64,000 nucleotides of DNA from Desulfosudaceae bacterium (GCA_963674745.2 CAXXDV010000003.1:2208001-2272000); one strand, 5' to 3'; counted from the first letter of the stretch, positions 406 to 51,764 are shown. Notes: generated by a model not told the origin, from the sequence alone. A program made the numbers and translations.

Positions 406-1128
406 ATGAAAAAATCAGTTGGATTGTATATTTTAGCTTTTTTTATGTGCCACATATTTGCCTGTTCTGATGAAAACAGGGATATTAAACTTGACACCAC
501 CGATAAAAAATTCAGCTATGTCATGGGCTATGAAGCAGTTGGCGTGATCGACAATCTTGAAGCCGTAGCCATCGACAAAGACGCTTTCATAAAAGGCATC
601 AGGGATGCTTTTGATAATGAACTGCCTCTTTTGACCCAGCAGGAAGGCCTGGAAATCAAGGCGCTGGTCTTTGAAAAGGAGCGCGCCCTTAAAAACCAGC
701 AGATCATGAAAGACACGAAAAAAAATCTGGATGAGCAGAAGGCGTTCCTGGAGCACAATAAAACGCTGGACGGGATTGAGGCGACCGCCGGTGGGTTGCA
801 ATACAAAATACTTGAAAAAGGAGACGGCCCGCGGCCCTCACCAGAAAGTGCCGTCCGTCTTCACTCCCGGGCAAGGCTTCTGGATGGTACATTGGTTGAA
901 TCCCTGTCCACCCGGGACACATCTGTTGTTGTTCCGGTTAAAGGCAATCTGCCTTTCTGGGAAAAGGTACTCGCGGTCATGCCCGCAGGAAGCCGGTACC
1001 GTTTTTTTGTCCCCTCAGCCCTTGCCTATGGCGAGATGGGTAATTTCGTTGACGGCGGCCGCGTCGGCCCAAACCAGTTGATCATTATTGACATTGAATT
1101 GCTGGAGATTATCAAACCAGCAGGTTAA
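406..1128 (+). CDS. FKBP-type peptidyl-prolyl cis-trans isomerase (FkpA/Mip-like), probable lipoprotein
   Basis: KFSYVMG N-domain, GLQYKILEKGDG, FFVPSALAYG, DIELLEI motifs; lipobox-like IFAC; start moved to ATG 406 because the upstream ORF part is MITE sequence. Confidence 0.88.
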   Translation: MKKSVGLYILAFFMCHIFACSDENRDIKLDTTDKKFSYVMGYEAVGVIDNLEAVAIDKDAFIKGIRDAFDNELPLLTQQEGLEIKALVFEKERALKNQQIMKDTKKNLDEQKAFLEHNKTLDGIEATAGGLQYKILEKGDGPRPSPESAVRLHSRARLLDGTLVESLSTRDTSVVVPVKGNLPFWEKVLAVMPAGSRYRFFVPSALAYGEMGNFVDGGRVGPNQLIIIDIELLEIIKPAG

Positions 1129-1171
1129 TGAGTCAGATGACAACCACATCGGCTATAAATGGCAGGCGGCT

Positions 1172-2608
1172 GTGAAACGACCTCGACTATTTCTGACAAA
1201 TATCGGCAAAAGACAGTACGAATTTTCGTTAATCACGCCGCCCCTCGGCATTATGTACCTGGCGGCTTATATCCGGTCCCGGTTCGATGCCGATATCATG
1301 CTGGTCAATCAAAAGGTCGCCGGCTATTCCAATGACCAGCTCATCAGTAAAGCGATTGAATTCAAAGCGGATATAATCGGCTTAAGCGTGTTGACGCCCA
1401 CTGCGCACAATCTTCCCTACCTGACCCGCATACTGAAAAAAATGATGCCCCGGGCACTGGTCATTATCGGTGGCCCTCATGTGTCTGCCTTTGAGGCGAG
1501 GTCACTTGAAAACAACATGGCCGACATCGCCGTTCCCAGAGAGGGTGAACTGGCCCTGGAGCAGATCGTGCGGGCTTATCTGGAAGGCGACTCTAACGCC
1601 TTTGAAGCAATACCGGGAATATTCCGACGATGCCCGGACGGTCAGGTTATCACCAATCCGGGCAGCATCCCTTTTATCAAGGATATTGATTCACTGCCGC
1701 CACCGGCCTACGACCTGATAGACCTTAAACCATACTGGAAAACACAGTCCATGCCGCCGCTGCCGCACCGGAGATACGCCTCCCTTTTTTCCAGCCGCGG
1801 ATGCCCCTACCATTGCATTTACTGTCACAGGGTCTTCGGAGATGCCTTCCGCAGCCATTCAGCCGAGCGCATTGCCGATGAAATGGCCTGGCTGCAGAAA
1901 AAATTTAACGTCCGGGATTTCGAATTTCTGGATGATATTTTCAATCTGAATAAAAAACGAATACGGCGTTTGTCCGAACAGATTTCAAAAAAACAAATCA
2001 AAACAAAACTGGTCTTCCCCAACGGGGTTCGAACCGATATCCTTGATAAAGAAGATATTGACTTGCTTTTTCGTATGGGTATGTATTTCGCCAGTTTTGC
2101 CCTGGAGTCAGGATCGCCCCGGATTCAAAAGCAGATCGGCAAAAACCTGAATATCGACAAATATATCGAAAATGTGAATTACGCAGCCTCTCTGGGGGTC
2201 GTCTGCAACGGATTTGCCATGATGGGGTTCCCCACAGAGACCGAAGAAGATCTCCGGATGACAATAGATGTAACCTGCGGATCCCGACTCCACACGGTGT
2301 CTTTTTTTACCACCACCCCGTTTCCCAACACGGAAATGTATCGCCTGGCGCAGGAGAAATTCCCGGAACGATTACAGGGACTGGTCTATAATGACATGGA
2401 ATATGCCGGCCTGGCCGTCAACCTGTCGGATGTGCCGGACCGGGTACTGTTTGCTTATCAGCGTCAGGCCAACAGACGCTTTTTCCTCAATCCCAATCGA
2501 TTGGCCCGGTTAATAAAAGACTATCCTCAACCCTATAAATTGCCGCTCTACCTTCCGGTTTTTGCCCGTCGCGCCCTGAAAGGCCTTTATCGACACCGGC
2601 CTGAATGA
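1172..2608 (+). CDS. B12-binding domain radical SAM protein
   Basis: PPLGIMYLAA, IIGGPHVS, SRGCPYHCIYC (CxxxCxxC), ALESGS, MMGFPTET; probable GTG start at 1172 (ORF track starts 1088). Confidence 0.9.
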   Translation: MKRPRLFLTNIGKRQYEFSLITPPLGIMYLAAYIRSRFDADIMLVNQKVAGYSNDQLISKAIEFKADIIGLSVLTPTAHNLPYLTRILKKMMPRALVIIGGPHVSAFEARSLENNMADIAVPREGELALEQIVRAYLEGDSNAFEAIPGIFRRCPDGQVITNPGSIPFIKDIDSLPPPAYDLIDLKPYWKTQSMPPLPHRRYASLFSSRGCPYHCIYCHRVFGDAFRSHSAERIADEMAWLQKKFNVRDFEFLDDIFNLNKKRIRRLSEQISKKQIKTKLVFPNGVRTDILDKEDIDLLFRMGMYFASFALESGSPRIQKQIGKNLNIDKYIENVNYAASLGVVCNGFAMMGFPTETEEDLRMTIDVTCGSRLHTVSFFTTTPFPNTEMYRLAQEKFPERLQGLVYNDMEYAGLAVNLSDVPDRVLFAYQRQANRRFFLNPNRLARLIKDYPQPYKLPLYLPVFARRALKGLYRHRPE

Positions 2609-2692: not shown

Positions 2693-3673
2693 TCAGCGCT
2701 CCTGATCCTGAAGACCGGCCACAACCGCAGGATAAATTTTACTGTAAATCGCTTTGGCCACCAGGTTATGACCGGCCGGAGACCAGTGATGGTCATCGTA
2801 ATATAATGACGATGGGGCATGACCACTGGCACTGAGTACTGAAAAAATATCGATTCGTGGATTTTTCGACCAACCCGACAACTGGAACAATTTTCCTTCC
2901 AGGCACCAGGTCGGCGTAATAAAAAAAGTTTTAATACCGGATCGCCATGCGCATTTCTCAATTTCCTTTAAATTATTATAGCAATCCCAGAGAGAAGCGC
3001 GTTCCACTTTTTCTCGATATGTTTTGCTCTGGTCATAAAAGAATTTTTTGAACCCAAAATACAGGCCATACATGGTCTGGTAAAACTCGGATTTCAACAG
3101 AATCGGATGAGCCCGGAGAAAAAACCCGGAAAAAGACTGCCGGTGATTATTTCCGCCTTCCCCGTCGTTTTCTCCGTATTGGACGATCAGCATATCCGGA
3201 TCGAACCCGAGGATATTTTCCTTTAAATAACGCAACTCCTGGAGCGAAGAATATCCGGGCACACCGGCGTTAATCACTTCAACCGTCCCCTGACCGAAGG
3301 CGGTATCAAACATCTGTTGTAATCGAGCAGGATAAGTGGATTCGTATGGACACCCCACGCCAAACGTACAGGAATTACCCAGGCAAAATATTTTGTATGC
3401 ATTATTCGTTTTCTTTTCATACAAATCCGGCCCCCGGAACCCCTGGGCGTTAACCTCCGTCTGGGCACAAGACGGCGTCAGGCGCCAGAACCGGGTCGAA
3501 TGAGGCTCAAAAAGGCCCAGTTCAACCGTCCTGTGGCCGACACCGATAAGGGGTTTTGGAAAATCAATATCGGAAACTCTCAAGCCGACTTCGCACAACA
3601 CAAGGGCAATCAACAGAACCAAACAGACAGAACCTGTTTTTTTAATCATTCTCATACGCCCGCAACTGTTCAA
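2693..3673 (-). CDS. SGNH/GDSL hydrolase-family protein with N-terminal membrane anchor
   Basis: Block I CLGNSCTFG, block II INAGVPGYSS, block III GEND, block V DDHHWS; start may be a few codons downstream. Confidence 0.85.
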   Translation of the reverse strand: MNSCGRMRMIKKTGSVCLVLLIALVLCEVGLRVSDIDFPKPLIGVGHRTVELGLFEPHSTRFWRLTPSCAQTEVNAQGFRGPDLYEKKTNNAYKIFCLGNSCTFGVGCPYESTYPARLQQMFDTAFGQGTVEVINAGVPGYSSLQELRYLKENILGFDPDMLIVQYGENDGEGGNNHRQSFSGFFLRAHPILLKSEFYQTMYGLYFGFKKFFYDQSKTYREKVERASLWDCYNNLKEIEKCAWRSGIKTFFITPTWCLEGKLFQLSGWSKNPRIDIFSVLSASGHAPSSLYYDDHHWSPAGHNLVAKAIYSKIYPAVVAGLQDQER

Positions 3674-3833: not shown

Positions 3834-4625
3834 ATGACGGGGAGAAATGAAATTATCCGGTTGACCATATTGATTACCGTCTATTCCGAAGAGACTGCGC
3901 TGCAACAGACAATTCAACGGCTGACACAAAATGACTGCGGCTACATTCACGAAATTCTCCTGGTTGTATCCCCCTTATCGTCTCTGAAGTGCCTGGAAAT
4001 CTGCCGCAACCTGGCCGAAGAAAATACGCTGGTCAAATTTATGCTTCAAAAAAATGCCGGCGTGGGGCACGCGGTTCGGGAAGGATTCGCCGTCGCTAGC
4101 GGTGACTACATCACCCTTATGTCGGCTGATCTTGAGAATGATCCCGATACCGTCGATCGAATGGTCAGCCGGATCGAACAGACCGGCTGTCAGGCGGTTC
4201 TTGCCAATCGCTGGCTGAAAAACGGCGGGTTTCAAAACTATCACCCGCTGAAACTGGCCTTAAACTTTTGTTTTCAGCAGGTATTCAAACGCATATATGC
4301 CACCGATGTAGGCGATTTGACGTTTGGTTTCAAGACCTTGAAAAAAGACATGGTCGATGCCATCAACTGGGAAGGGACCTTCCATGAAATTTTCATTGAA
4401 ACGACCTTGAAACCGTTGCTTCAGAATGCATCCATTTACCAGGTCCCCACGGTCTGGACGGGACGAAAAGAAGGGGTCAGTAAAAACAGTTTTTTTATTA
4501 ATTGCCGATACGTCTGGCTGGCCGTCAAGCTGATCCGTCACATTCCGGCGCAACGAAAAAAAGCGCACGAGGCGACAGGAAAACCCGCCATTGCCGTTCC
4601 CCGGCGGGAACACAACGAACTGTAG
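3834..4625 (+). CDS. Glycosyltransferase family 2 (DPM1-like)
   Basis: ITVYSEE, NAGVGHAVREGF, MSADLENDP, DLTFGFK, GRKEGVSK. Confidence 0.85.
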   Translation: MTGRNEIIRLTILITVYSEETALQQTIQRLTQNDCGYIHEILLVVSPLSSLKCLEICRNLAEENTLVKFMLQKNAGVGHAVREGFAVASGDYITLMSADLENDPDTVDRMVSRIEQTGCQAVLANRWLKNGGFQNYHPLKLALNFCFQQVFKRIYATDVGDLTFGFKTLKKDMVDAINWEGTFHEIFIETTLKPLLQNASIYQVPTVWTGRKEGVSKNSFFINCRYVWLAVKLIRHIPAQRKKAHEATGKPAIAVPRREHNEL

Positions 4626-4687
4626 CACATGCGGTTCCAACAAGACCGGTTGGCAAAAGACGGATCTTCAGGCATAGGAGTGCCGAT

Positions 4688-6193
4688 GTGCATGTTACCC
4701 TGATTAACCCGCCGGCTCTTGTCGGGCGGTTTAATTATTCCGCTTTTACCCACCCGCCAATGGGACCGGCCTACCTGGCCGCCTGCCTGCGGCAGAAAGG
4801 GCACACGGTAAGCATTATTGACGCCGTAGGCGAGGCGATATCAGAGTTCGCTCCCTATCCGCCTTCAAACCGTTTCCTGGTACAGGGATTGCGATTTGAT
4901 GACATTATCCACCGGATCCCCCCCGAGAACGCGCTTACCGGTATTTCCTGCATGTTTTCACATACCTGGCCGCTGGTCAGGGGACTGATCCGGCAAATAA
5001 AATCCGCTTTCCCCGATGTGCCCGTTATTGCAGGCGGTGAACACCCCACCGCCCTGTACGCGTATTGTCTCCGCCAGGCGCCCCTGGAGGCCTGTGTTCT
5101 GGGGGAAGCAGAAAATACGATCGTCGAAATCGCCGACGCCCTGGAAAACGGATGCCCCCTGTCTGAAATCGAAGGGATCGCCTGGATAAACAAGGAAACC
5201 CGGGAAGTGGTGAGAACCGGAGAGAGAAAGGTGATTACCGACCTTGACACCCTGCCCTCACCGGCCTGGGACCTGATTCCCTGGAAAGAATACAGGCTTT
5301 TTGACGGGCCGGTGCTGTCGCAGCCTTTTGCCATTTTGGCGTCCCGAGGATGCCCTCACAATTGCGCCTTCTGTTCTGCCCCGAACATGTGGCAACGGGT
5401 ATGGCGGAAACGGACACCGGAGAACATCATTCAGGAGATGATGGATTATATCTCAGCCCACCGGATTGCGGAGTTCCAATTCAGGGACATCAGTCCGCTG
5501 ATCCAACAAGAATGGATCCAGGATTTATGTATGACGATCCGTGAGCAACTCCCGGGCATCCGCTGGCAGATGCCGGTCGGCGGCCGGCCGGAAGTGATAG
5601 ACGAAACAACGGCCGGGTTACTGGTCAGTTCCGGATGCCGGCATATCCAGTTCGCCCCGGAAAGCGGCAGTCCGGCCGTATTGGCGGCCATGAACAAACA
5701 TTTGGATTTAAACCGGTTCAAACAGGCCGTGGTAGTGGCAAAAAATGCGGGCATGCGCATCAGCGTGCTGTTTATCATCGGTTTTCCCGGTGAAACCCGT
5801 CGGGACATCATGCTGACCTACCGCCTGATACGCTGGCTGGCAAGACATGACGTCGAAGAAATCGCGGTTTCCTCTTTTGTACTGCTGCCGGGAACACAGA
5901 TATTTAATCGAATAACCGCTTCACGGACATTAAAAATAGACGATGCCTTTTTTTATCAAGCGGCGGGCGCAACTGCCTTTACCCCCTCGGCTTCCTGGAA
6001 CCCGGATATGGGGAAATTTTCCCTGCTGATATACAAATGGCTGGGACTGATTCAATTTTACGCCATTGCTTTTTTCCGCCACCCCTCGAGGCTGACACGG
6101 ATACTATCAAACCTGAGAAGGGGGCGGCAGGAGACCAAAATCGACCGTGTTATGGCGGAAATCGTCACCAAAATCAAACGACGTGCTTTTTAA
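4688..6193 (+). CDS. B12-binding domain radical SAM protein
   Basis: PPMGPAYLAA, IAGGEHPT, SRGCPHNCAFC, APESGS, IIGFPGET; GTG 4688 follows AGGAG (ORF track starts 4502). Confidence 0.9.
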   Translation: MHVTLINPPALVGRFNYSAFTHPPMGPAYLAACLRQKGHTVSIIDAVGEAISEFAPYPPSNRFLVQGLRFDDIIHRIPPENALTGISCMFSHTWPLVRGLIRQIKSAFPDVPVIAGGEHPTALYAYCLRQAPLEACVLGEAENTIVEIADALENGCPLSEIEGIAWINKETREVVRTGERKVITDLDTLPSPAWDLIPWKEYRLFDGPVLSQPFAILASRGCPHNCAFCSAPNMWQRVWRKRTPENIIQEMMDYISAHRIAEFQFRDISPLIQQEWIQDLCMTIREQLPGIRWQMPVGGRPEVIDETTAGLLVSSGCRHIQFAPESGSPAVLAAMNKHLDLNRFKQAVVVAKNAGMRISVLFIIGFPGETRRDIMLTYRLIRWLARHDVEEIAVSSFVLLPGTQIFNRITASRTLKIDDAFFYQAAGATAFTPSASWNPDMGKFSLLIYKWLGLIQFYAIAFFRHPSRLTRILSNLRRGRQETKIDRVMAEIVTKIKRRAF

Positions 6194-6333: not shown

Positions 6334-8643
6334 TCAAAAGCCCGGGCCCTCATCAACCCGTGAGATATTCAGGTCAATCCGCTTGAGCATGTTTTTGAAT
6401 TTCGCATTATCCGGTTCGTATGCCATGGCTCTGCGAATAAAAGCCAGAGACCGTTCCGGATTGTCCAGCCATAACATCAAATCCGCGGCCCGATAGTACG
6501 CCTCACCATCGGGCAGACCGATTGTAAGGGCCTGCTGCATCAGTTTCATTGTCATACGCCGATCTCCCGCAGACAGCCATTTTTCGGCCCTGTTCATCGT
6601 CTGAATGGCATAGTCAATGCGTTCGGTTACGGTCCGAACGTGTGTATCGTTAAACCAGCCATCCGACGGTCCTGCAGGCTCCTTGAACAGCACGGGATCA
6701 TAAACGGGAAAATAAGGCACGATATATCCGGCGCAGGCCGCTTTTTCCTTGTCTGAGTCCAGGACCTGAAAAATCTGATAATACCTGTTCCGGTACACCA
6801 GCCTCAGCCGCCGGAAACTGTCCGGCGCAAAGTGCAGCCGGTAGGTCAGGTTGTTCCGGGGTACTTTAGACAGCCCCGCCAGATAACGTTTACCGTCAGG
6901 GTCGGCCTTTAAGAGGTTCCGGATGGGATAAAGATAATAATCGGTCTCCAGATCATCAAGCATTCGGTAAAGGGCATCTTCATCCTGGCCGAAAAGGGTC
7001 AGCAATATTTTCCGGTGCTTTTCCCTGATATCTTCGGCTTCCATCTTGGGATGCTGATTAATGGCCCGTCCGGTATAGGCCAAAATCGAGGGGCTGTTCT
7101 CTATATTACTTAAAAATACGGCCGTATCAGGGGTATGATGCCTTATCCAGTCCAGCATGTGCTTCTCATCTCCGGCATAAACCGCCAGACGCGGTCGTGA
7201 ATTATCGGCGCCAAGTTGTCTGGCCGTTTTCGCCAGATATGTGTTGTCCCACAACACCGCTTCCCGAACCTGAAAAATCAGGCACGCGGCCAGCATGATA
7301 CCCGATAGCCGGTTTTGATTAAAATAAACAGCCCGGTCCGGGGCAGCCCCTGTTTTTGTCCTGTCGGAGAGGAAAAGAAAGGCAACCGCCGTTCCCAGAA
7401 AAAAGGCGCTGAAGATAATCAGCCGCTGCGCCATGATGTTTGCCCCCAGAAACATGACGGCCAGAAAAATGACCATGAGCTCATCAAAACGGGCTTGACG
7501 CCGTTTGGTTTTAATAAAGCAGGCAAATGCCATCAGGGCCAGCGGCAGCAGCAGGCCGAAACGATAAATCAGAAAAAAAAACGGCGGGCTATTAAACGGA
7601 CCGTTCCAGAGAATGCGCCCTTCAAAGGGTAACATCCCCGGATTGTCGGGCTTGACCAGGAGGTTGGACAATTTGTATTTAAACAGCGCCCAGACATGGC
7701 CATAAACGGAATTTTCGGTTCCCAGAGAAAAGATCAGAAGGATGAGAACAACACCGGACGCCAGCAAAAACAGGCGAGAAAAAAAATTCAGGCCGATTTT
7801 CGTATCAATGAACAATACGATTACCACCAGAACGCCGGTCAGCACGGCCGGTGAAAAAAGCAGCGCGCTGGTTCGCATGACCGGTGACACCACACCGGCC
7901 GCCGCGACAAACACCAGGACCACAACCGCCGTGTTAAATTGATGCCGTTTGCCGCCGGTAAAAAGAAAGGCCCAGGCCATGGCGGCCCAGAACATCAACA
8001 GATAAAAGCGGGTAAAATGCCAGCAGACCAGGGCGGCGGTCAGGCAGACACCGGACAAGGCGGCCGAGACCATTGGATATGGCCGGCCCCGCAGGGCATA
8101 CAGGCAGGCGGCAAAAGACAGTGCCATCAACGGAAAAGCCGTGGCCTCGAGTTCATAAAACTGCACCCGCCCGAATGCCGCACCGGAAAAGGCATACAGG
8201 GCGGAAATATACAGGGCCGGCCAGGACCGGCCGCCAAGCGCCCGTACACACAAAAACACCGCCGGAACCGTCAGGCAGGAAAAAAAAGCGATAAAATAAA
8301 CCAGAAACGTGTACAGGGAAACATTTGGGAAAAAACCGGAAAACAGGCGGAAGGACAGGCCATGCAGATATTCCTGAAACAGCGTCAGCTCCCGGAAAGG
8401 GGTTATCCCTTCCGGCCATTGCGGTTTTTTATCAAACAGAGGGATCGGTTCGTCATCGGCCACCATCCGGGTATGCCGGAATTGAAACGCCTCTTCGGTA
8501 TAAAATGACCCGATATCCGCATCAATGTCATAATATGACAGTTCTTTGAACCGTTCCGCCCGATGAAACGCGGCACCGGTGATGATAACCGCCAAACACA
8601 GCCAAACAAAAAATGGCCGGTATTTTTCCTGGGGTATATTCAT
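6334..8643 (-). CDS. GT-C fold membrane glycosyltransferase, DPY19-like (STT3 superfamily), with C-terminal TPR
   Basis: Many TM helices; SFYTEEAFQF, RVQFYELEATAFP, WHFTRFYLL, WIRHHTPDTAVF...TGRAINQHPKME resemble DPY19 blocks; no WWDYG motif. Confidence 0.7.
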   Translation of the reverse strand: MNIPQEKYRPFFVWLCLAVIITGAAFHRAERFKELSYYDIDADIGSFYTEEAFQFRHTRMVADDEPIPLFDKKPQWPEGITPFRELTLFQEYLHGLSFRLFSGFFPNVSLYTFLVYFIAFFSCLTVPAVFLCVRALGGRSWPALYISALYAFSGAAFGRVQFYELEATAFPLMALSFAACLYALRGRPYPMVSAALSGVCLTAALVCWHFTRFYLLMFWAAMAWAFLFTGGKRHQFNTAVVVLVFVAAAGVVSPVMRTSALLFSPAVLTGVLVVIVLFIDTKIGLNFFSRLFLLASGVVLILLIFSLGTENSVYGHVWALFKYKLSNLLVKPDNPGMLPFEGRILWNGPFNSPPFFFLIYRFGLLLPLALMAFACFIKTKRRQARFDELMVIFLAVMFLGANIMAQRLIIFSAFFLGTAVAFLFLSDRTKTGAAPDRAVYFNQNRLSGIMLAACLIFQVREAVLWDNTYLAKTARQLGADNSRPRLAVYAGDEKHMLDWIRHHTPDTAVFLSNIENSPSILAYTGRAINQHPKMEAEDIREKHRKILLTLFGQDEDALYRMLDDLETDYYLYPIRNLLKADPDGKRYLAGLSKVPRNNLTYRLHFAPDSFRRLRLVYRNRYYQIFQVLDSDKEKAACAGYIVPYFPVYDPVLFKEPAGPSDGWFNDTHVRTVTERIDYAIQTMNRAEKWLSAGDRRMTMKLMQQALTIGLPDGEAYYRAADLMLWLDNPERSLAFIRRAMAYEPDNAKFKNMLKRIDLNISRVDEGPGF

Positions 8644-12046: not shown

Positions 12047-13282
12047 TTAATCGACGCTATTCAACCGCCAGGTGATGAACTCGTTTTCAAAATAGTGGTC
12101 GGGATCCTGCTCCAGGGGCGGCCAGTTGCGGTATTCGTTTACGCCGGCAATAACGTTCCAGCCGGAAAACCGCCGGTCGGTAATATCGACCATCAAAAAA
12201 AAGCCATGGTTCTTGTCCTGGAAATTACCCACAATGTTGTTGATCGATGTACCGTCGCCTCCGGACTGGATCTGGTTCATGTTGGTGTTGAACCAGAACT
12301 GTCGAAACGACCCCTGACTGGAGGTATCGGGATTAAACTGAAAACTTGAAAGCGACCAGAATTGATCAAGAATGGGATCCCGCTGCAATTGAAAACACAC
12401 CATATTGGTCAGGTCCGTGGCCTCGGGGGACAGCTTGGACATTTCGGCGTTCATCCAGCCGCTGGAAACAAGTGGCCTGACCGAAGAGTAACCATAAAGG
12501 CAGTTGGAGCCGAGGGCAAACCGCCTCAGCAGCTGGTCACTTTCCCCCCAGTTACTGAACTCGGCCCGGAGCACAAGGCCGTATATCCGCATGGGGTACT
12601 CTTCGCTGAAACCCATTTTGAGATTTTCCCAGTTAATGTCCCATTGGGTTTCCGGATGGTCACTGCATTGGGTTGAACCGAAATAATTCCATGGGCGAGT
12701 GGCTGACAAATTAACATATTGACCCAGAGTGATCCGGTTGCCGGTGCGGGCAGAGGAACTATAACGATCATGGATCCTGTCTTCCCGGTTACTGTTTGTA
12801 GATTCATATGGGTTATCACCAGCTGAGCCACCATAAGTAGCTGATATCTCTTGATTACCTCTGGTGTTTGATCTGTTCTGGGGGCCATAGACCATGGTGT
12901 AATCGGAATCCATGGAAGCCATATCACCCAGTTCCGAGACGGTCCGGGGATAATTCCCCATCTTGAGGGCGCCGATTTCGCCATAATTTTCAAGGTAGAT
13001 ATCACTGGAAAAACGGACTACGGTAACACTCTCGCCCATACCGGTATTTACGGAATCGTAAAAATCGTCCTGGCTGATGGCCATTTCAAGGAGATGTCCG
13101 CCTTCAAGCTCGCCCAGCTCGTGGTTGGTCATGGCATTAAGACCGGCCGATACTGGTAGAGACGAAAAAATCATCATCAAAATACCCAGAAGCGCCAGCA
13201 AACCGGGCTGAACGCTGCAACGGGCACATACGACATGTTTCTTTTTTACTGCACGACCTTCGATCTGAACCCCCATATTCAA
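12047..13282 (-). CDS. Secreted protein with double-glycine-like pro-leader
   Basis: Hydrophobic segment ending PVSA, then GLNAMTNHELGELEGG; start codon uncertain (TTG 13282 or ATG 13276). Confidence 0.65.
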   Translation of the reverse strand: MNMGVQIEGRAVKKKHVVCARCSVQPGLLALLGILMMIFSSLPVSAGLNAMTNHELGELEGGHLLEMAISQDDFYDSVNTGMGESVTVVRFSSDIYLENYGEIGALKMGNYPRTVSELGDMASMDSDYTMVYGPQNRSNTRGNQEISATYGGSAGDNPYESTNSNREDRIHDRYSSSARTGNRITLGQYVNLSATRPWNYFGSTQCSDHPETQWDINWENLKMGFSEEYPMRIYGLVLRAEFSNWGESDQLLRRFALGSNCLYGYSSVRPLVSSGWMNAEMSKLSPEATDLTNMVCFQLQRDPILDQFWSLSSFQFNPDTSSQGSFRQFWFNTNMNQIQSGGDGTSINNIVGNFQDKNHGFFLMVDITDRRFSGWNVIAGVNEYRNWPPLEQDPDHYFENEFITWRLNSVD

Positions 13283-15981: not shown

Positions 15982-15985
15982 ACGT

Positions 15986-31154: not shown

Positions 31155-31156
31155 GT

Positions 31157-37133: not shown

Positions 37134-37139
37134 CATTTC

Positions 37140-39593: not shown

Positions 39594-39680
39594 AGCTTAA
39601 GCAGTCACTGAAATATACCAATCCTGTCCCGGATGCCCGATCAATGGCAATGACGGGCGGAGGGGCTCCCGACGTCCGGA

Positions 39681-45353: not shown

Positions 45354-46136
45354 ATGCACGTACTTATTGCTTTCTTAATCAGTACTGCCTTGCTTTCCGG
45401 TTTTCTCCCCTCAAGGGAGATACCTGACAATGAGGTGCGTTTTATTTATGCCCCTATTGACGGTATAACAACCAACACGGATTACTATCTTCCCCACGCT
45501 CTCCAGCCGGTCGAACTGCATTTTGAGATGAGAAACGCGTCGGATATAGAAAAATCACGCATTATTTCTCAGAAATATGACTATAGTTGCGGATCTGCTG
45601 CCCTGGCCACACTCTTAAGATACCACCTTGCTGAAGATTTTGAGGAAACGCACATTATTCACGGCCTGCTGAAATACGGGGACAAGGAAAAAATTATAGA
45701 GAGAAGGGCGTTCTCCCTTCTGGATATGAAAAAATTTGTTAATGCCATCGGATACCAGGGCGTGGGCTACAAGGCTGAAATAGAGGACCTTGAAACGCTG
45801 AACATGCCCTGCATTCTACCCATGGAACTTTACGGTTATCGCCATTTTACCGTGTTCAAAGACGTTTATAAAGGCCATGTTTTTCTGGCTGACCCGTTTC
45901 AGGGAAACACCAGCTACCCGATAGAACAATTTAAAAAGTTGTGGCATGAAAATGTTATTTTTGTCGTTTATCCTTCAGGAGAAGAGCAATTGGCCTTATT
46001 AAAATTGAAAAACGACGATCTCCGTTTTATGGATGAAGATCGGACACTGGATATCATGTTTCGAGACAGAATGTTAGAGAAAGAACCAATGCCGATTGAG
46101 ACAGATCCTAAAACACGACAATACTATAAAAGATAA
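45354..46136 (+). CDS. Stand-alone C39-family cysteine peptidase (FapD/FilB-like)
   Basis: QKYDYSCGSAALATLL, FSLLDMK, HFTV, LADP; hydrophobic N-terminus; no ABC domain. Confidence 0.92.
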   Translation: MHVLIAFLISTALLSGFLPSREIPDNEVRFIYAPIDGITTNTDYYLPHALQPVELHFEMRNASDIEKSRIISQKYDYSCGSAALATLLRYHLAEDFEETHIIHGLLKYGDKEKIIERRAFSLLDMKKFVNAIGYQGVGYKAEIEDLETLNMPCILPMELYGYRHFTVFKDVYKGHVFLADPFQGNTSYPIEQFKKLWHENVIFVVYPSGEEQLALLKLKNDDLRFMDEDRTLDIMFRDRMLEKEPMPIETDPKTRQYYKR

Positions 46137-46160
46137 ACCGCAATGCGCCTCAGGAGGTAC

Positions 46161-48092
46161 ATGTTGAAGGCAAATATAAAAATTATTTTCATGGCGGCGT
46201 TATTACTGACAGCCCTGGTAATAAATGGAAACGGTCAGGAAAACCAGACAGGTACCAAGGCCAGCGACCAGGCTGAAACCGGTTTTTCAAAAAGCCTCAC
46301 CTCGAGAGAGTTGGAGCGGCAAACCGCTGCCGGCCTGAAAAAGGACCTGGCCCCTGAAGCACTTGAGGCAGCCACTGGTGCCGGCCTGAAAAAAAATCTG
46401 GACAGTGATGAACTGCAGGAGTCCACGGCCGCCGGCCTGAAAAAAGACCTGACCACTGAAGAGTTAAATTCATCCATTGGAGCGGGCATCAGGCGTGTCT
46501 CATCGCTGGAACTGGATAAAGCATCCGGCCGGGGATTTATGACCGACATGACCCGGGCGGAGCTGGAAAATCTTGTCGGTAAGGGCTTTATCGGCAAGCT
46601 TACACCTGATGAAATTGAACAAATCAGCGCCCGGGGAACATTATCTGATGAACAGGCGCGAATGACCATCAAAGACCTTGCTTCTGTTTTCGCTCAGGGC
46701 GTTAAATTCATCATTGACACATCAAAATTTTCAGAAGAGGAGCTGGGCGAAATTAAAGGCCGGGGCACCCTTCAGGATATCGGTAAATTCCCCTACTCGA
46801 TCCAGGTGGGGGTTTTCAGGGACAAAGCCAATGCCATTGCCATGCTGGAAACCATTAAAGGACAAGGCTATGATCCTTATATTTTCAGAACCCGTGATGA
46901 CCTCGGCAATTCGCTGTTTGCCGTTCGCCTCGGCGATTATGAATCCATTCAGGAAGCTTATGCCGAAGTGACACATTACAAGGGCAAAGAACACAAGGAA
47001 GCTTTTGTCACCTACATCAACTCTACCAAAAGTGTGGATGAAAAAGACATCGTTAATGAAAAAGATGAAAGCGCACGTCCGGATCTTTCTAATCAGCTTG
47101 ATTTTGACAAAGAATACGCCAGCGAGGATCTGAGGGCTCTTTACAAACAGATTCAAGCACTTGAAGGTGAAGTTGATAAATTACGGACTGAGTCGCAAGC
47201 CAGGAAAAAACTCAAGATGACAGAAGCCGAGCAGCAAAAGGAGGAAGAAGAAATCCTCTCCGCTGCCGGGCGTGAGTATGTGCTGTCGCCGGCCGGAACT
47301 TTAAGCTTTGATTATAATTTCGGATACACCCATAACAGTTATGACGAGGCTGAATGGAACGTTTCCCGCATCAAGCATACAGCTGATCATACACTGACGA
47401 ACACCCTGTCAACCACTTACGCTCTGTTCGACAACCTTTCTTTGTCCGCGTCCATTCCGTTCAAATATAAGTATCACGATCTGGGTGTCAGCGGGTCAAA
47501 AGATGTCAGCGATTTAGGCGACCTTTCTTTAAGCTTCAGCTGGCAGCCTACCAAATCCCAACAGTCGATACCGCCTATCATTGTTACTACCAGTGTTTCC
47601 GCGCCTACCGGTCGGGGACCGTATGAAATCAACCCGGAAGTTGATTTATCAACCGGTTCCGGTATTTATTCGTTTTCACTTGGTGTCAACACCAACAAAA
47701 AAGTCGATCCGGTAGTGGTTTACGGGGGGCTTGCTTATTCCTTTCTGTTAAAGGAAAAAGACTTGGACTACTATCTGGGAACAGGCGCTGTTCTTAATGA
47801 AGTAGAACCGGGCGGGGGGGTTGCCTTGAGCCTGGGGCTTGGTTATGCCATGTCCTATGCGGCAACTATCAACGTAGGCATCAGTATGACTTATTCCTTC
47901 GGGTCAACGTATTATTATCTGGACGGCAGTAAGTCGGAAACCGGTGATGCGGTCAGCGCCAGCCTCAGCCTGGGTACCGGCTGGCGTTTTTCAAGCCAGC
48001 GGACAATCAGTTTTTCCGTTGGCATCGGCCTGACCAATGATGCTTCGGACTTCTCATTTTCCTTTAGAATACCCTTTGATTACGCACTGTAA
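46161..48092 (+). CDS. Outer-membrane transporter (FapF/FilC-like barrel) with N-terminal repeats, SPOR domain and coiled coil
   Basis: AGGAGG RBS before ATG 46161; signal peptide; 17-aa repeats; SPOR-like YSIQVGVF...AVRLGDY; coiled coil; LGDLSL, APTGRGPY, STGSG, DPVVVYG, GIGLT.DA.DF.F.FRIPF. Confidence 0.8.
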   Translation: MLKANIKIIFMAALLLTALVINGNGQENQTGTKASDQAETGFSKSLTSRELERQTAAGLKKDLAPEALEAATGAGLKKNLDSDELQESTAAGLKKDLTTEELNSSIGAGIRRVSSLELDKASGRGFMTDMTRAELENLVGKGFIGKLTPDEIEQISARGTLSDEQARMTIKDLASVFAQGVKFIIDTSKFSEEELGEIKGRGTLQDIGKFPYSIQVGVFRDKANAIAMLETIKGQGYDPYIFRTRDDLGNSLFAVRLGDYESIQEAYAEVTHYKGKEHKEAFVTYINSTKSVDEKDIVNEKDESARPDLSNQLDFDKEYASEDLRALYKQIQALEGEVDKLRTESQARKKLKMTEAEQQKEEEEILSAAGREYVLSPAGTLSFDYNFGYTHNSYDEAEWNVSRIKHTADHTLTNTLSTTYALFDNLSLSASIPFKYKYHDLGVSGSKDVSDLGDLSLSFSWQPTKSQQSIPPIIVTTSVSAPTGRGPYEINPEVDLSTGSGIYSFSLGVNTNKKVDPVVVYGGLAYSFLLKEKDLDYYLGTGAVLNEVEPGGGVALSLGLGYAMSYAATINVGISMTYSFGSTYYYLDGSKSETGDAVSASLSLGTGWRFSSQRTISFSVGIGLTNDASDFSFSFRIPFDYAL

Positions 48093-48110
48093 AACGTGAC
48101 AGGAGAATTG

Positions 48111-49928
48111 ATGCGATCACGACCACAGGCCAGACCGGGATGGTTATTTTTAATTGCCTGTTTTATATTCAGCCTCGGCGGCAGTATCAACTGCCAGGCA
48201 GCCCTTTTTGAAAACATGGCCATCTGTGCCAAGGCCATCTCGCTGGCAAACTCCTGTACCGCCTATCCTCCGGATCAAATGTCCATTCACTATAATCCGG
48301 CCGGGCTATCCACTGTTCATGACGGTCTCCAATTGAGCCAGGGGCTTCTCACCGCCTCGTTTGCATTAAAATCAAGGTTTGATCCGGATCCGGACTTTCC
48401 CGGATGGCTGGGCGGAATTTACAGCGGGGAGCCGGGTGATTCTGATTATTACGACTACCGCCCCGAAGCCGATCCGGTTGCCGGCCAAAGCGGTACCAGT
48501 TCAGGTGTTCATCTTTACCTTCCCCTGATGGGCTCCCAGGACATGAGTTCTGTCGGTATGCCGACGCCGTTTGGTTTTTCTCTGGCCGCAGCCCCTTTCC
48601 CTTTTGGCCTGTCTTACCGGAAACCGAATTCACGCGTAACCTTCGGATTCGGTTTATATGCCCCTGCCATGGGCGGGTTTTACCGTGATGACGATGACCC
48701 CGCCCGGTACAACGGACGGGCGCTTTCCATGCAGCACATTGTTTACGCCGCACCAGCCGTCAGCTATCAACTGACGGATACCCTTTCCGTAGGGGTTACC
48801 CTGGGGCTTGGTCAGGGTGCCACCGAGATTGACACGGACATGCGATTGCCCAACGACATGACCGCATTGACGGAAATTCTCGGTATATCAACGCAAGGAT
48901 TGAACATCCCCGTTATTTCTCAATTGACCCTCCCCCCGCCATGGATGGGCGGCGGTGTCGGCCCTTATGACGATATCGGCAACATGTCTCTTGCTGTCCG
49001 TGATGACTATACACCGAGCTACAATCTTGGTCTTCTTTGGGAACCGTCCAACTGGTTTTCATTCGGTCTCTGTTATCAAAGTGAAGTCAAAATGGAATAT
49101 AGCGGCAGCTTCAAATTCACCTACAGCGAGGAATTTCAAGGTTTTGTCGCCTGGATGGGCAGTTCGCCACTACTCCTGGCCGTTTCCCAGCTGCTGGATC
49201 TTCCCTACCGATCCACACCTTACCAGCAAGGGGCAGTCAACTTGACAGGTGGAGACTTCCCGGAGAGAATCCAGACCGGTATCATGCTTCGCCCCATCCG
49301 CCGTCTTAGGCTGATGTGTGATCTGCACTGGATAAACTATTCCAAGACCAAGGCCTATACCATAATCTTTGACCAGGACATCCAGGCTTTAATGATATCC
49401 AAATTCATCGGGCACCTGGATGGGAATAACAGATTAAAGATTGACATGAACATGAAGGATGAAGTCCATCTCAGCTTCGGCCTTGAATACCAACTGCTGG
49501 ACTGGCTGTCCTTAAGATGCGGTTATGAAGACAGAAAAACATCTGTAAACATGGACTATTTCTCGTTGCTGGCACCGCTGGCCGATATAGACTACTATGG
49601 TGTCGGCCTGGGCATTCAATTAAAAAGCGGCCTGAAAATCGATCTGGCCGCCGGGTTTCTCAAGTCCGACTCATGGGAGGTGCCCAACAATTCCAGTAAG
49701 AATCTGAACTCTACGGAATTTATCGATGCAGTGTACAACCCCTATGGGGGTATGGATGTTTCGGGCAGCATGGAAGCCACCCTCATTGCCGCCAATTTTT
49801 CCCTGCCGTTCGAATATCTTTACCGGGTCGGCGACTTGTTAAAAGATACCGGGCAAAAAATCAAAGAGAATATGCCTTTTATGAAAAAATCGAAAAAGCC
49901 TGAAACACAGGACCCGATCAATAAGTAA
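48111..49928 (+). CDS. OmpP1/FadL/TodX-family outer-membrane protein (FilD-like)
   Basis: Signal peptide; AISLAN, HYNPAGL, FGFGLYAP, PAVSYQLTD.LSVG, NLGLLWE, FGLEY, LRCGY; AGGAG before ATG 48111. Confidence 0.85.
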   Translation: MRSRPQARPGWLFLIACFIFSLGGSINCQAALFENMAICAKAISLANSCTAYPPDQMSIHYNPAGLSTVHDGLQLSQGLLTASFALKSRFDPDPDFPGWLGGIYSGEPGDSDYYDYRPEADPVAGQSGTSSGVHLYLPLMGSQDMSSVGMPTPFGFSLAAAPFPFGLSYRKPNSRVTFGFGLYAPAMGGFYRDDDDPARYNGRALSMQHIVYAAPAVSYQLTDTLSVGVTLGLGQGATEIDTDMRLPNDMTALTEILGISTQGLNIPVISQLTLPPPWMGGGVGPYDDIGNMSLAVRDDYTPSYNLGLLWEPSNWFSFGLCYQSEVKMEYSGSFKFTYSEEFQGFVAWMGSSPLLLAVSQLLDLPYRSTPYQQGAVNLTGGDFPERIQTGIMLRPIRRLRLMCDLHWINYSKTKAYTIIFDQDIQALMISKFIGHLDGNNRLKIDMNMKDEVHLSFGLEYQLLDWLSLRCGYEDRKTSVNMDYFSLLAPLADIDYYGVGLGIQLKSGLKIDLAAGFLKSDSWEVPNNSSKNLNSTEFIDAVYNPYGGMDVSGSMEATLIAANFSLPFEYLYRVGDLLKDTGQKIKENMPFMKKSKKPETQDPINK

Positions 49929-50093
49929 CACTTTTTTTAGAAGGACAAAATAAGCTCAATATCAGCTTTTTAATTCAAAAGGCCAAAACTCCTGATAGAA
50001 TTCACATTGCAGTGTAGTGTCAGGATGCGTTCTTGCGATGTGCTGATATTGAATTTTTTTTTGCGGTCTTTAATCACATGGGAAAGAGGAAAA

Positions 50094-51764
50094 ATGAGAT
50101 TACTGCTGTTTTCTTTACTGCTTGTCACATCACCGGGCATTTTATTCGCAAACCAGGCAAAAACCACGATAGAAGAAAGGATGGTTCCTCTAGGTCATGG
50201 CATCAGCGGAGAAGAGATATATGTCAACTCACTTGAAATAAGCCCCGATTTTAAACATATCGGCTATGTTTCCAGAATTGGTGGGACATTCCGGGTGTGG
50301 CTGGACGGAGTGTCCAAGAAAAGCCACAGTGGTGTTACCAGGCAGTCTCCGTTCTTCTCTCCCGAACAGAACCGGCTGGCATATATTGCCAATGAAGGGG
50401 ACAACATGTTTGTTGTCATTGATAACCACGAACATGACCGATATAAACAAGTCGGAACCCTGACGTTCAGCCCTGACGGTTCTCGAGTCGCGTATCGGGC
50501 CGAAGATGCCAAGGGAAGTCAGTTTGTCGTTATTAACGGTAAAGAGGGGCCGAAATTCGATGTGGGAATTACTAATGATATCGGCATTGTCTTCAGCCCT
50601 GATTCAAAGCATGTGGCTTATGTCGGTATCAACGACAAGGACTCCGTTATATTTGTTAAAGACAACAAAAAAATAGACAGTTTTAAACAAATCAAGCAGG
50701 TCAAATTTTCCCCTGACTCAAATCACCTTGCCTATTCTGCCATGAAAGACGATGGATGGGTCGTTGTCCTGGATAATAAATCTGGCCAAACGTATATAAT
50801 GGTCGACAACCTGATGTTTTCTCCTGACAGCACTCAGCTGGTTTATATGGCTCAAAAAAGCCGCCGCTCGATTATCGTAATAAACAACAAAGAAATCAGT
50901 GAGGGAATCGGTGTGCTTTTCCCCTCCTTTTCGCCCCATAAGGGACGGTTTGCGTACATCATTGCTGAAAAGAATAATAAATTTTGCTATGTCCTGGATG
51001 GGGAAAAAGAACTTTTAGTGGATAAACCCGGCCGGATGATTTTCAGCCATGATGATACCAGCGCGGCCTATGCCGCTTTGATAAAGGACAAGTGGCATGT
51101 TTTAAAAGACGGTGTTAAGGGCCCGGCTTTTAAAAAGATCTACGCTTTTTCCTATTCCCCTGCCAGCAATGATATTCTGTACGCCGCTGAAAATGAAGCG
51201 GGTCAAAAATGTGTTGTAGTCAACCACATTCCGGAAAAATTTTATAACTCAATTGGCGCACCCGTATACAGCAAAAATGGTCAAAAATATGCATACGTGG
51301 CCACGAACAACGACGGGAAGATGTTCATAATCATCAATGGACAGGAGCAAAAAACGACATATCCCATAATCGGGATTCCCGTGGAAGAAGTCAATGAGTC
51401 GGGGGTCAGCGCCCAGCATCCGTATTTCAGTGACACCGGCAAACGGCTGGCTTTTCCGGTTTACGATCCTGACCAAAAGAAAGCCTTCATGGTGGTTGAC
51501 GGAAAAAACCAGCAAACCTTTGACGCGGTTATGGCGCCCTGCTTTTCTCCCGATGAAAAACACATCGCCTATATGGGCAAAAAAGGAAACAGCTGGCACA
51601 TGGTCGTGAATGGGAAACCCGGCCGCCATACCTGCGACGGAATGATTCGCGGTGCAACCATCGCATTTGATCCCGCTAATAACTGCTTTTTTATACTGGT
51701 TGCCAGCAACACTGAATCAGGCCTTTCTTTTTACCGCATGGAGGCTGAGATCAAAAGCCCTTAA
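50094..51764 (+). CDS. Secreted TolB-like/PD40 beta-propeller repeat protein
   Basis: Signal-like N-terminus; more than ten FSPD...AY....VV.DG repeats; start ATG 50094 (ORF track 50007). Confidence 0.75.
   Translation: MRLLLFSLLLVTSPGILFANQAKTTIEERMVPLGHGISGEEIYVNSLEISPDFKHIGYVSRIGGTFRVWLDGVSKKSHSGVTRQSPFFSPEQNRLAYIANEGDNMFVVIDNHEHDRYKQVGTLTFSPDGSRVAYRAEDAKGSQFVVINGKEGPKFDVGITNDIGIVFSPDSKHVAYVGINDKDSVIFVKDNKKIDSFKQIKQVKFSPDSNHLAYSAMKDDGWVVVLDNKSGQTYIMVDNLMFSPDSTQLVYMAQKSRRSIIVINNKEISEGIGVLFPSFSPHKGRFAYIIAEKNNKFCYVLDGEKELLVDKPGRMIFSHDDTSAAYAALIKDKWHVLKDGVKGPAFKKIYAFSYSPASNDILYAAENEAGQKCVVVNHIPEKFYNSIGAPVYSKNGQKYAYVATNNDGKMFIIINGQEQKTTYPIIGIPVEEVNESGVSAQHPYFSDTGKRLAFPVYDPDQKKAFMVVDGKNQQTFDAVMAPCFSPDEKHIAYMGKKGNSWHMVVNGKPGRHTCDGMIRGATIAFDPANNCFFILVASNTESGLSFYRMEAEIKSP

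Follow-up and report, generated by a model that had tools for sequence, protein, structure and literature searches.

A 51-kb island of a Desulfosudaceae bacterium, located in a stretch of 64,000 nucleotides (GCA_963674745.2 CAXXDV010000003.1:2208001-2272000; the whole stretch is hereafter called the window), is shown by homology and synteny to place a Fil-type secretion operon beside what appears to be a periplasm-facing glycosylation toolkit. We consider, with a probability of about 0.5, that the two may form one surface-fibre system with an attached modification module, whose subunits would be glycosylated from flipped lipid sugars, trimmed by the FilB protease and exported via FilC and FilD. 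Listing of the open reading frames (ORFs) and scanning with Pfam and NCBIfam yielded a coherent map (Table 1), in which the right-hand part (42.1-51.8 kb) is a single plus-strand operon with all genes co-directional, and the left-hand 41 kb contains the GT-C glycosyltransferase genes, the sugar-donor and tailoring genes and two large leader-bearing proteins. All the parts named in a preliminary description of this DNA, made from the sequence alone, were recovered by these scans at about the coordinates it had given. It had started the island at position 406; the island is found there, but this position falls within the ORF of the FKBP-type isomerase (337-1128).

The NCBIfam models of FilA, FilB, FilC and FilD matched consecutive genes in the Fil order, in agreement with the Fil/Fap assignment and the gene order given in the preliminary description. 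At least 574 FilB-related loci were found in the species collection, and the best 80, none from Acinetobacter, were examined; the order of subunit, C39 protease, barrel and FadL-like barrel was kept wherever the contig was long enough. The FilB gene matched its model with E = 1e-55 (189 bits against a cut-off of 475) and the FapD model with E = 5.6e-37, and scored 66 bits with Pfam Peptidase_C39 (cut-off 22). For the FilC gene, the values were E = 6.6e-55 (187 bits against 630) with FilC and 1.3e-18 with FapF, and for the FilD gene 7.3e-94 (315 bits against 970) with FilD; the FapD and FapF matches were both below the curated cut-offs. The NCBIfam FilB, FilC and FilD models are of the 'exception' type and tuned to Acinetobacter, and because the scores are far below these cut-offs, the operon is regarded as a distant branch and not as an equivalog. 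The subunits gave 27-36 bits with NCBIfam FilA (cut-off 220; best E = 4.4e-9), and two of them passed the Pfam DUF6160 cut-off of 27 bits with 30.9 and 38.4 bits. A profile built from 48 FilA relatives recognized the four subunits, in gene order, with E values of 7.8e-80, 2.7e-54, 6.8e-80 and 2.4e-08, and no match to Fap subunit families was obtained with Pfam or NCBIfam from any of the six leader-bearing proteins described below.

Inspection of FilB showed an N-terminal hydrophobic segment and the residues Q73, C79, H164 and D180, corresponding to the catalytic Cys/His/Asp and the oxyanion Gln, which were invariant in all 11 homologs (11/11). The nearest solved relatives of the FilB profile were proteases of double-glycine motifs (6mpz, 3.6e-10; PCAT1, 3.1e-8). 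Residues 453-645 of FilC matched the solved FapF (PDB 5o65, E = 1e-11), and a beta-propeller gene is found 3' of FilD in most Fil loci of the Desulfobacterota type. On Acinetobacter sp. Tol 5, FilA has been detected as a protein of surface fibres, as stated in a portion of PMC11784438 that cites Hori et al. 2011. Among the literature matches listed (subscription journals were outside the scope, here and in the novelty searches below), nothing relevant on DUF6160 and no account of the mechanism of Fil (filA-filD) was found.

Two further features of the operon were observed. The FilC proteins of the window's family carry N-terminal repeats and a peptidoglycan-binding SPOR domain ahead of the coiled coil and barrel (46143-47500; also loci L022, L026, L029, L030 and L032), and FilC homologs beyond this family align to the last ~320 residues only, a layout suggesting that the secretion pore is anchored to the cell wall specifically in this family. 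The first and third subunits (42123-42662 and 43360-43896) are 87% identical, with a divergent paralog (31%) between them, and the pair looks like a recent duplication.

All six leader proteins have a Sec-type signal peptide followed by a conserved segment, e.g. ...SAMA LEKMSGEDLGGVTGQ AGVTI..., and the motif '...L..V.GQ.G' after the signal peptide is common to them. The segment can be written as a propeptide of ~13 residues, L/M(-12) S x x D/E(-8) L(-7) x x V(-4) x G/A(-2) Q/G(-1). The consensus of double-glycine leaders is LSxxELxxIxGG, which is fitted by the hydrophobic residues at -12, -7 and -4, the acidic residue at -8 and G/A at -2; position -1, occupied by Q in most cases, holds G in the 411-aa protein, resulting in a true GG. 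The preliminary description counted six secreted paralogs. Six proteins do share the leader, but the group really means, as judged by the profiles, four homologous subunits and two larger proteins that are alike in the leader only: the 569-aa protein matched the FilA profile with E = 1.2e-4 and a leader-only profile with 1.7e-5, and the 411-aa protein was not significant by hidden Markov model (leader E = 0.8) and was found through its true GG motif by regular expression. Homologs of the latter lie divergent from the GT-C array in genomes G002 and G009, and directly before FilB in loci L073, L079, L086, L087 and L094.

When the leader and DUF6160 profiles were applied to the 5.5-Mb genome, no other convincing match was found beyond the island proteins, and a strict regular expression of the leader found 4/6 of the island proteins, its other matches in this genome being non-N-terminal chance matches. 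Borderline matches of the leader profile were seen for ORFs of 139 and 210 aa (E = 7e-4 and 3.5e-3), at G000:C1 near 1597580 (-) and C3 near 1346961 (-), G000 being the window's own genome. In the fetched loci, the profile matched 122 proteins, including those of Pseudomonas Fil-type operons, and these proteins end in a common C-terminus ...(W/A/P)(A/G)H. Several Pseudomonas species commonly carry Fil-type operons with FilA-B-C-D (L095-L119, records of Pseudomonas and other gammaproteobacteria), and the subunits of these operons have a Sec signal, the segment '...MDD.AL.G(I/V)TGQDGISI' and the C-terminus '...KVWGH'. Because the Pseudomonas subunits carry the same segment, the double-glycine-type site looks general for the FilB/FapD protease class. 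A Sec signal peptide followed by a putative double-glycine-type propeptide was thus found generally in Fil subunits, including those of Pseudomonas, and is new here. According to the available part of PMC5557850, FapD is periplasmic and required for Fap secretion, its target 'remains unclear', and the Fap proteins are without a canonical C39 site, and therefore the Fil subunits offer an obvious candidate site. Cleavage of the propeptide by FilB would be consistent with these features.

The GT-C set of the island comprises seven close GT-C+TPR paralogs (664-817 aa), a GT-C+TPR protein of 516 aa and a DPY19-like GT-C. The 516-aa protein matched a profile of the seven paralogs with E = 7.6e-17, its sequence holds 'GFDD', which contains the DD motif, and its PMT_2 match (22 bits) was below the cut-off. 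In an alignment of the seven paralogs with 24 homologs from relatives (mean column identity 48%), D37 and D38 were invariant in 31/31 sequences, and K198, R360 and Y362 were conserved. The AlphaFold2 model made from this alignment had a predicted local distance difference test score (pLDDT) of 87.7, and Foldseek and VIA-align placed it in the GT-C_A class, with Z values of 19.6-18.8 tied among STT3, Pmt4, ArnT, AglB and Pmt1/2. Pfam left most of the membrane domains without a match, two reaching DUF6056 (31 and 27 bits), and a PDB search using the full-length protein returned TPR proteins only. The TMTC family corresponds to CAZy GT105. Comparison with its motifs in the available part of PMC7801869 (Table 4) showed that the DD of M1 is kept, that the K-E of 'SKEIAATLP' resembles M4, KE(T/Q)xxT, that 'EHRTY' resembles M7, ERxxY, and that M2, 'SHKSYRP', is reduced to 'RP' in the family. 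The invariant DD and the conserved K198, R360 and Y362 stand at places like those of M1, M4 and M7. Prokaryotic homologues of TMTC are noted in the same part of that paper, and no account of bacterial TMTC-like enzymes was found among the literature matches listed. In short, by sequence and model, architecture and catalytic loop (GT-C_A fold, C-terminal TPRs, invariant DD) are TMTC-like, in line with the preliminary description, and membership in the animal family is not established.

The DPY19-like GT-C is well above the cut-off of Pfam Dpy19 (4.3e-16; 58.7 against 27.2 bits), so its earlier naming holds. It matched the C-mannosyltransferase of PDB 7zlg with E = 2.3e-4, over residues 489-577 only. 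Its close orthologs (E <= 1e-200) occur only in the same-genus genomes G001 and G002 and in G008. The match in G011 was partial, and those in G004, G009 and a second copy of the own genome were weak.

Sugar-donor supply was examined by the same scans. Three GT2 genes of the polyprenyl-phosphate-sugar-synthase type start at 3834, 23300 and 31157, two of which are paired or fused with DUF2304. The first matched NCBIfam AglJ (1.9e-16) and the ArnC type (3.4e-13), both below the cut-off. The PpgS-like gene pair at 23300-24384 and the GT2-DUF2304 fusion at 31157-32200 scored 89.7 and 105 bits with PpgS, below the cut-off of 370 (E = 1.7e-25 for the pair), and the DUF2304 partner of the pair reached 58 bits against 25.5. 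These synthases and the flippase-like proteins bear out the lipid-phosphate-sugar supply of the preliminary description. The SDR, aminotransferase and N-acetyltransferase genes (20508-23300; the last at 168 bits against a cut-off of 160.8) are shown by homology to make up a putative pathway for a 4-acetamido-deoxy sugar, and the Alg13/14-like pair is an ordinary PssD/PssE pair according to NCBIfam. In outline, the Arn and PpgS pathways consist of an aminotransferase or tailoring step, a GT2 that loads polyprenyl phosphate, a membrane partner or flippase, and a GT-C on the outer face; the mycobacterial PpgS product serves a cell-wall polysaccharide. As far as homology can tell, the donor pathway of the island resembles these bacterial Arn and PpgS/DUF2304 routes.

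The likeness to the Arn pathway raises the question of whether the GT-C enzymes act on a non-protein acceptor, such as lipid A or lipopolysaccharide in an ArnT-like manner, peptidoglycan or exopolysaccharide, with Fil as a mere neighbour or a partner at the level of the surface. Not only does the set of aminotransferase, GT2, flippase and GT-C resemble Arn, but ArnT also scores level with the protein glycosyltransferases when folds are compared (Z 18.9), PpgS/DUF2304 is named for a polyprenyl-phospho-N-acetylgalactosaminyl synthase whose mycobacterial product goes to the cell wall, and the PssD/PssE pair with a further GT2 is typical of polysaccharide synthesis. We nevertheless judge this explanation very unlikely, since all eight PMT/TMTC-type GT-Cs carry a C-terminal TPR, protein-binding as in TMTC (the DPY19-like enzyme has one weak TPR match), Pfam scans of the window showed no initiating phosphoglycosyltransferase, Wzx/Wzy or polysaccharide export genes, and the array abuts the subunit genes in the same direction in several genera.

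Linkage between the two parts was evaluated in the own genome and its relatives. The GT-C profile had 28 matches in the own genome, 13 of them at E <= 1e-100, and 7/13 lie inside the window, next to the only FilB gene. That the parts of the island stand together is not chance, as the leader profile is confined to the island and 7/13 of the closest GT-C paralogs are there. FilB matches at E <= 1e-3 were obtained in 17/41 genomes (own included; 16/40 relatives), and FilB is present in 10/12 other genomes of the window's family; 14 of the matches were strong, and two weak ones, located in frames of 1015-1049 aa, are probably transporter domains. When the window proteins were compared by tblastn with 20-kb stretches of the relatives' Fil loci, a GT-C array was found directly 5' of FilA-FilB-FilC-FilD-propeller in G002 (11 GT-C), G007 (3 long and 3-4 short), G009 (6) and G006, whose contig begins within a GT-C gene, and in G017, of another family, the array was divergent at 2 kb from FilA. 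The preliminary description had set an array unlinked from the secretion genes in related genomes as the outcome counting against it; the array was instead syntenic with the Fil operon in all same-family loci with enough flank (4/4; G002, G006, G007 and G009) and in G017. The share of close GT-C paralogs located at a single Fil locus was 7/13 in G000, 3/4 in G007, 6/10 in G009, 3/6 in G017 and 11/21 in G002.

Beyond these genomes, long or short GT-C membrane domains were present in 12/58 of the Desulfobacterota-like loci among the best 80, and in 10/29 of those with at least 8 kb upstream. Polyprenyl-phosphate-synthase-like GT2 genes occurred in 4/58, and PpgS-like GT2 or flippase-like genes accompany the GT-C genes in L079 and L089; L099 carries three GT-C genes along with four FilA genes and FilBCD. 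A FilB tree was made of 87 rows, i.e. the 80 loci, six further loci of the relatives' genomes and the window, with L036 (G017) left out as a likely duplicate; 17 rows were linked, 40 informative and unlinked, and 30 uninformative owing to short flanks. The linked state required at least 7 changes on this tree, with well-supported branches forcing at least 5 of these, whereas shuffling gave a mean of 14.8 changes, and 0/500 shuffles were as low as observed. Among the linked clades are that of the window's family, a pair of Desulfatibacillum type, a clade of Desulfobacteraceae/Desulfonema type and one of Smithella/Syntrophaceae type, the last with the short GT-C type. With GT-C neighbours in 17/57 informative loci, at least 5-7 gains or losses, and none in 22 gammaproteobacterial loci, the coupling is real but facultative. 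Our conclusion is that the association of GT-C with Fil is recurrent, non-random and optional.

Some of these observations might also be expected if a fast-duplicating GT-C family had merely expanded in tandem in a variable region flanking the Fil operon, with no functional link. The expansion is indeed local, as the copies stand in tandem and their membrane domains share 41-61% identity; moreover, the island content varies among genera, from 3 to 11 GT-Cs, and kin are not independent, the loci of the own family counting as one event. Linkage is nevertheless found in at least 4 other FilB clades (Desulfatibacillum-type, L050/L053/L055, Smithella/Syntrophaceae-type and L079/L071/L089), and because the searched relatives beyond the window's family that carry the GT-C family show only 1 to 6 matches (E <= 1e-60) in 2.8 to 6.5 Mb, such out-of-family linkage is hard to obtain by chance. 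We regard the absence of any functional link as highly improbable.

Several results weigh against a dedicated, glycosylated fibre system. First, linkage is far from a rule: the preliminary description tied the array to the fibre, and 40/57 informative Fil loci had no GT-C in the stretch covered. None of the 22 gammaproteobacterial loci (0/22) had GT-C neighbours, no GT-C was found within 20 kb 5' of the Fil operon in G027, and the short stretches at the Fil loci of G024 and G031 contained none except one gene of the short type at a distance of 6.5 kb; despite its two Fil loci, G031 lacks any GT-C family member at E <= 1e-60. Conversely, the GT-C family was present in 13/14 genomes with strong FilB but also in 14/27 without it (41 genomes), and 6/13 of the closest GT-C paralogs in the own genome are outside the island, beside unrelated genes, for example those of RecD2, UvrA, an RND efflux system, a betaine transporter and VKOR-DsbA. 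Second, the likeness to TMTC has limits. The membrane domain gave nothing in PDB sequence searches, either as a single sequence (E <= 10) or as a profile (E <= 1), and Pfam TMTC_DUF1736 (PF08409) had no match at E <= 10 in any of the 8 GT-C membrane domains, so that of the eight TMTC-like enzymes counted earlier, the seven close paralogs and the 516-aa protein stand as a family but not as members of that Pfam entry. Among Atlas look-alikes, bacterial PMT_2/TPR clusters were the nearest, and the eukaryotic TMTC_DUF1736 cluster had rank 21 with a score of 0.93. Together with the PssD/PssE nature of the Alg13/14-like pair and the Arn/PpgS-like donor route, this makes the earlier term 'eukaryote-like' largely a matter of naming.

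Third, the subunits do not stand out as acceptors. They had been described as Thr/Ser-rich, but the S+T fraction of mature FilA was ~0.2 in GT-C-linked and unlinked loci alike (e.g. Pseudomonas), no richer than in genomes without GT-C neighbours, and a comparison of S/T content, T-runs, WxxW and sequons found no acceptor signature separating linked from unlinked subunits. A conserved run, 'GGTxTTT', is confined to the family of the window. The C-mannosylation suggested for the DPY19-like enzyme found no counterpart, as WxxW was absent from the six leader proteins (0/6; one WxxC in the 569-aa protein), and because of this the enzyme is left with no obvious C-mannosylation site. Finally, the FilA monomer model was poor (pLDDT 61) and all-beta, did not support a fibre-forming fold, and gave no usable match among 48,161 PDB representatives (best Z 3.5); a homotrimer prediction of mature FilA scored 0.00 and 0.00, which counts neither for nor against polymerisation. 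Because of the low confidence of this model, the fibre is taken from Fil/Fap homology only.

Some of these results are also what would be seen if the GT-C/TPR array performed general periplasmic protein O-glycosylation of many envelope proteins, similar in scope to the actinobacterial PMT or Bacteroidota systems. The Fil subunits would then be no more than part of a large set of clients, and a shared 'cell-surface island' would account for the adjacency. The scattering of 6/13 close paralogs beside housekeeping genes, the family in 14/27 genomes without strong FilB, the spread of the look-alike clusters over many bacterial phyla and the lack of a specific acceptor signature all agree with this explanation. 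We consider it unlikely all the same, since Fil linkage is recurrent (at least 5-7 gains or losses across the FilB tree), involves differing GT-C subtypes (the long type, and the 516-aa short type in Smithella-like and SURF_3-like loci), and in G007 holds for 3/4 of the family members.

The preferred reading, a Fil-type fibre with its own modification module, can be formulated as follows. After Sec-dependent passage of the inner membrane and removal of the signal peptide, the subunits would retain the ~13-residue double-glycine-type propeptide. While unfolded in the periplasm, they would be bound by the TPR domains and glycosylated on Ser/Thr by the GT-C enzymes, which would draw on lipid-phosphate sugars made on the cytoplasmic face and then flipped; the multiple paralogs may supply differing sugars or sites. 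FilB would cut off the propeptide, and FilC, aided by FilD and the propeller, would export the subunits, which would assemble into a glycosylated fibre or coat. That the subunits are glycosylated is purely an inference. Because many Fil systems work without GT-C, the modification module would be optional in evolution. An extended and quite doubtful version regards the propeptide as a periplasmic 'leader' in the sense of ribosomally synthesized and post-translationally modified peptides (RiPPs): the TPR domains would read it, several different lipid-phosphate-derived sugars would be added to the still unfolded subunit by the GT-C enzymes, and the C39 cut would then license export via FilC/FilD. 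One sugar or site per GT-C paralog would result in combinatorial glycosylation, with some sugars perhaps methylated or sulfated by the radical-SAM and sulfotransferase enzymes of the island.

Table 1. Features of the island, with coordinates in the window
Feature	Coordinates	Strand	Basis or remark
FKBP-type peptidyl-prolyl isomerase (FKBP_N+FKBP_C)	337..1128	+	Pfam, NCBIfam; left island edge
B12-binding radical SAM enzyme, first of 3 in island	1088..2608	+	Pfam, NCBIfam
GDSL-type acylhydrolase/esterase	2693..3673	-	Pfam
GT2, polyprenyl-phosphate sugar synthase-like (AglJ/ArnC-like)	3834..4625	+	Pfam; NCBIfam below cut-off
B12-binding radical SAM enzyme	4502..6193	+	Pfam, NCBIfam
DPY19-like GT-C, weak C-terminal TPR	6334..8643	-	Pfam Dpy19
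Short GT-C, 516 aa, DD motif, ~3 TPRs	8660..10210	-	PMT_2 below cut-off; GT-C profile
Secreted protein, 569 aa, Fil leader (signal peptide, then ...LSNEDLGSVMGQ)	10303..12012	-	Leader profile
Secreted protein, 411 aa, Fil leader with true GG end (...MTNHELGELEGG)	12047..13282	-	Regular expression
Three GT-C+TPR paralogs (749, 719, 757 aa)	13732..20496	+	Pfam, alignment, AlphaFold2 model
SDR epimerase/dehydratase, PseC/ArnB-like aminotransferase, NeuD/PglB/VioB-family N-acetyltransferase	20508..23300	+	Pfam, NCBIfam
PpgS-like GT2 and small DUF2304 membrane partner	23300..24384	+	Pfam, NCBIfam
B12-radical SAM enzyme and sulfotransferase	24381..26794	+	Pfam
Flippase-like LPG_synthase_TM/TIGR00374 protein	26884-27819	+	Pfam, NCBIfam
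Second flippase-like LPG_synthase_TM/TIGR00374 protein	27901-28902	-	Pfam, NCBIfam
PssE/PssD (Alg13/Alg14-like) pair, GT2, DUF2304-GT2 fusion (PpgS-like)	29047..32200	-	Pfam, NCBIfam
Four GT-C+TPR paralogs (739, 731, 817, 664 aa)	32581..41675	+	Directly 5' of subunit genes, same direction
Four FilA-like (DUF6160) subunit genes	42123-42662, 42697-43299, 43360-43896, 44010-45119	+	Pfam, NCBIfam, profile
FilB/FapD-like periplasmic C39 cysteine protease	45354..46136	+	Pfam, NCBIfam
FilC, 649 aa: signal peptide, repeats, SPOR, coiled coil, FapF-like barrel	46143..48092	+	NCBIfam, PDB
FilD: FadL/TodX-family outer-membrane barrel, signal peptide	48096..49928	+	NCBIfam
Secreted PD40/TolB-like beta-propeller, probable start 50094	50007..51764	+	Pfam, NCBIfam

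At the left edge, homologs in G007 (L024) are similarly arranged, with an FKBP-type isomerase at the equivalent edge and a homolog of the first B12-binding radical SAM enzyme adjoining GT2. Elsewhere in the own genome, two close GT-C+TPR paralogs flank a gene of the TANGO2 family (Pfam 9.8e-74; L120:8170-12981; G000:C1, ~919-924 kb), which is named after a eukaryotic secretory-pathway protein. A further paralog at L123 (G000:C3, 465-485 kb) is accompanied by two sulfotransferases, a GT4, an SDR-ferredoxin fusion and a B12-radical-SAM enzyme, and this locus is a second, smaller glyco-island without Fil-type genes.

In 4 runs of a single marine-sediment study, RNA-library contigs that are 90-99% alike covered the three short subunit genes. 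The contigs matched both of the 87%-identical genes and were sparse beyond the three, although a gap in their cover carries no weight; they indicate that subunit genes of close relatives are present in RNA libraries, and no more. A scan of 41.5-46.3 kb for sigma-70 promoters and terminators found fewer sites than in shuffles. A sigma-54-like -24/-12 element with one mismatch is located at 41827-41841 (+), ~295 bases 5' of the first FilA gene and just 5' of where the cover by RNA contigs starts. This pattern had 4 matches in the window against 5 expected, which is not above chance, and the element was kept at equal distance in the same-genus L021 and in none of the other 20 loci (2/22).

Downstream of the Fil operon, on the minus strand, a thiamine pyrophosphate (TPP) riboswitch (55833-55926, 69.8 bits) is parted from thiC (52574-53863) by an IS110-family transposase gene (54522-55637), an insertion that probably uncouples thiC from the riboswitch; in G002, a Memo gene stands within ~500 bases after thiC, with no insertion. 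A tRNA at 55954-56027 is followed by a block at 56206-60932 encoding a Memo-AMMECR1 fusion, a spermine-synthase-like protein of 703 aa and a radical SAM enzyme. The Memo-AMMECR1 block is conserved 3' of the Fil operon in all same-family loci with a long enough contig (G002, G005 and G007; also L041 and L044).

Fil-type operons, Fap and the glycosylation of pilin by a GT-C are already known separately. In the literature, no description was found of large arrays of TMTC-like GT-C/TPR proteins with their own lipid-sugar supply that are recurrently joined to Fil operons, nor of Fil subunits in which a propeptide of the double-glycine type follows the Sec signal. The earlier claim that no described system combines these parts thus stands for the combination, but glycosylation of a pilin by an adjacent GT-C, using a lipid-linked monosaccharide, has been described for TfpW of Pseudomonas. 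The locus bears on three questions. One is the targets of the abundant bacterial GT-C+TPR (TMTC/PMT-like) proteins, for which it offers six candidate substrates. Another is what the periplasmic C39 proteases of the FapD/FilB class cut, since the Fil subunits bear a near-canonical site right after the Sec signal. The third is the nature of the Fil fibre, which is widespread (at least 574 FilB loci) yet almost unstudied. If the fibre is glycosylated by the array, the system would parallel, in bacteria, the domain-specific O-mannosylation of animals, and it might offer a means of varying the surface against phages or grazers; if the RiPP-like version also holds, the subunits would be the first natural substrates for bacterial TMTC-like enzymes and provide a cleavage site for the FapD/FilB class.

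Among the known systems, Fil of Acinetobacter consists of the same four families in the same order, namely DUF6160 subunit, C39 protease, FapF-like barrel and FadL-like barrel. The present operon differs in its extra subunit paralogs, the two large leader proteins, the SPOR and repeats in FilC and the propeller after FilD, and its GT-C array has no equivalent at the 22 gammaproteobacterial Fil loci. Fap of Pseudomonas likewise depends on a periplasmic C39 protease (FapD) for secretion and has a FapF-type barrel, whereas no FapA/B/C/E-like proteins are found here, the subunits matching FilA/DUF6160 only; to our knowledge, Fap has no FadL-like gene. The available part of PMC5557850 describes FapF as a trimeric barrel with a periplasmic coiled coil and the Fap proteins as having no canonical C39 site, in contrast to the near-canonical double-glycine-type propeptide of the Fil subunits.

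On the glycosylation side, TMTC1-4 of animals likewise combine a GT-C membrane domain with lumenal TPRs (periplasmic here), a DD in the first extracytoplasmic loop and the GT-C_A fold, whereas the enzymes of the island show no match to TMTC_DUF1736, only 'RP' of M2, and bacterial nearest clusters. The Arn (ArnB/C/E/F/T) and mycobacterial PpgS-DUF2304-GT-C pathways follow the same logic from donor to GT-C as the island, but modify lipid A or arabinogalactan, and not proteins, with GT-Cs that are not known to carry TPRs. TfpW is of the GT-C type and encoded beside the pilin gene, and we know of no TPR domains in it. According to the available part of its report, TfpW of Pseudomonas aeruginosa is a membrane glycosyltransferase that modifies pilins in the periplasm from lipid-linked D-arabinofuranose, which is made in the cytoplasm and flipped (bioRxiv 10.1101/2020.04.19.049825). 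Its fibre is a type IV pilus served by a single enzyme, unlike the Fil/Fap-type fibre and the array proposed here; TfpW is nevertheless the closest precedent for the idea of a surface fibre modified in the periplasm by a GT-C encoded beside it.

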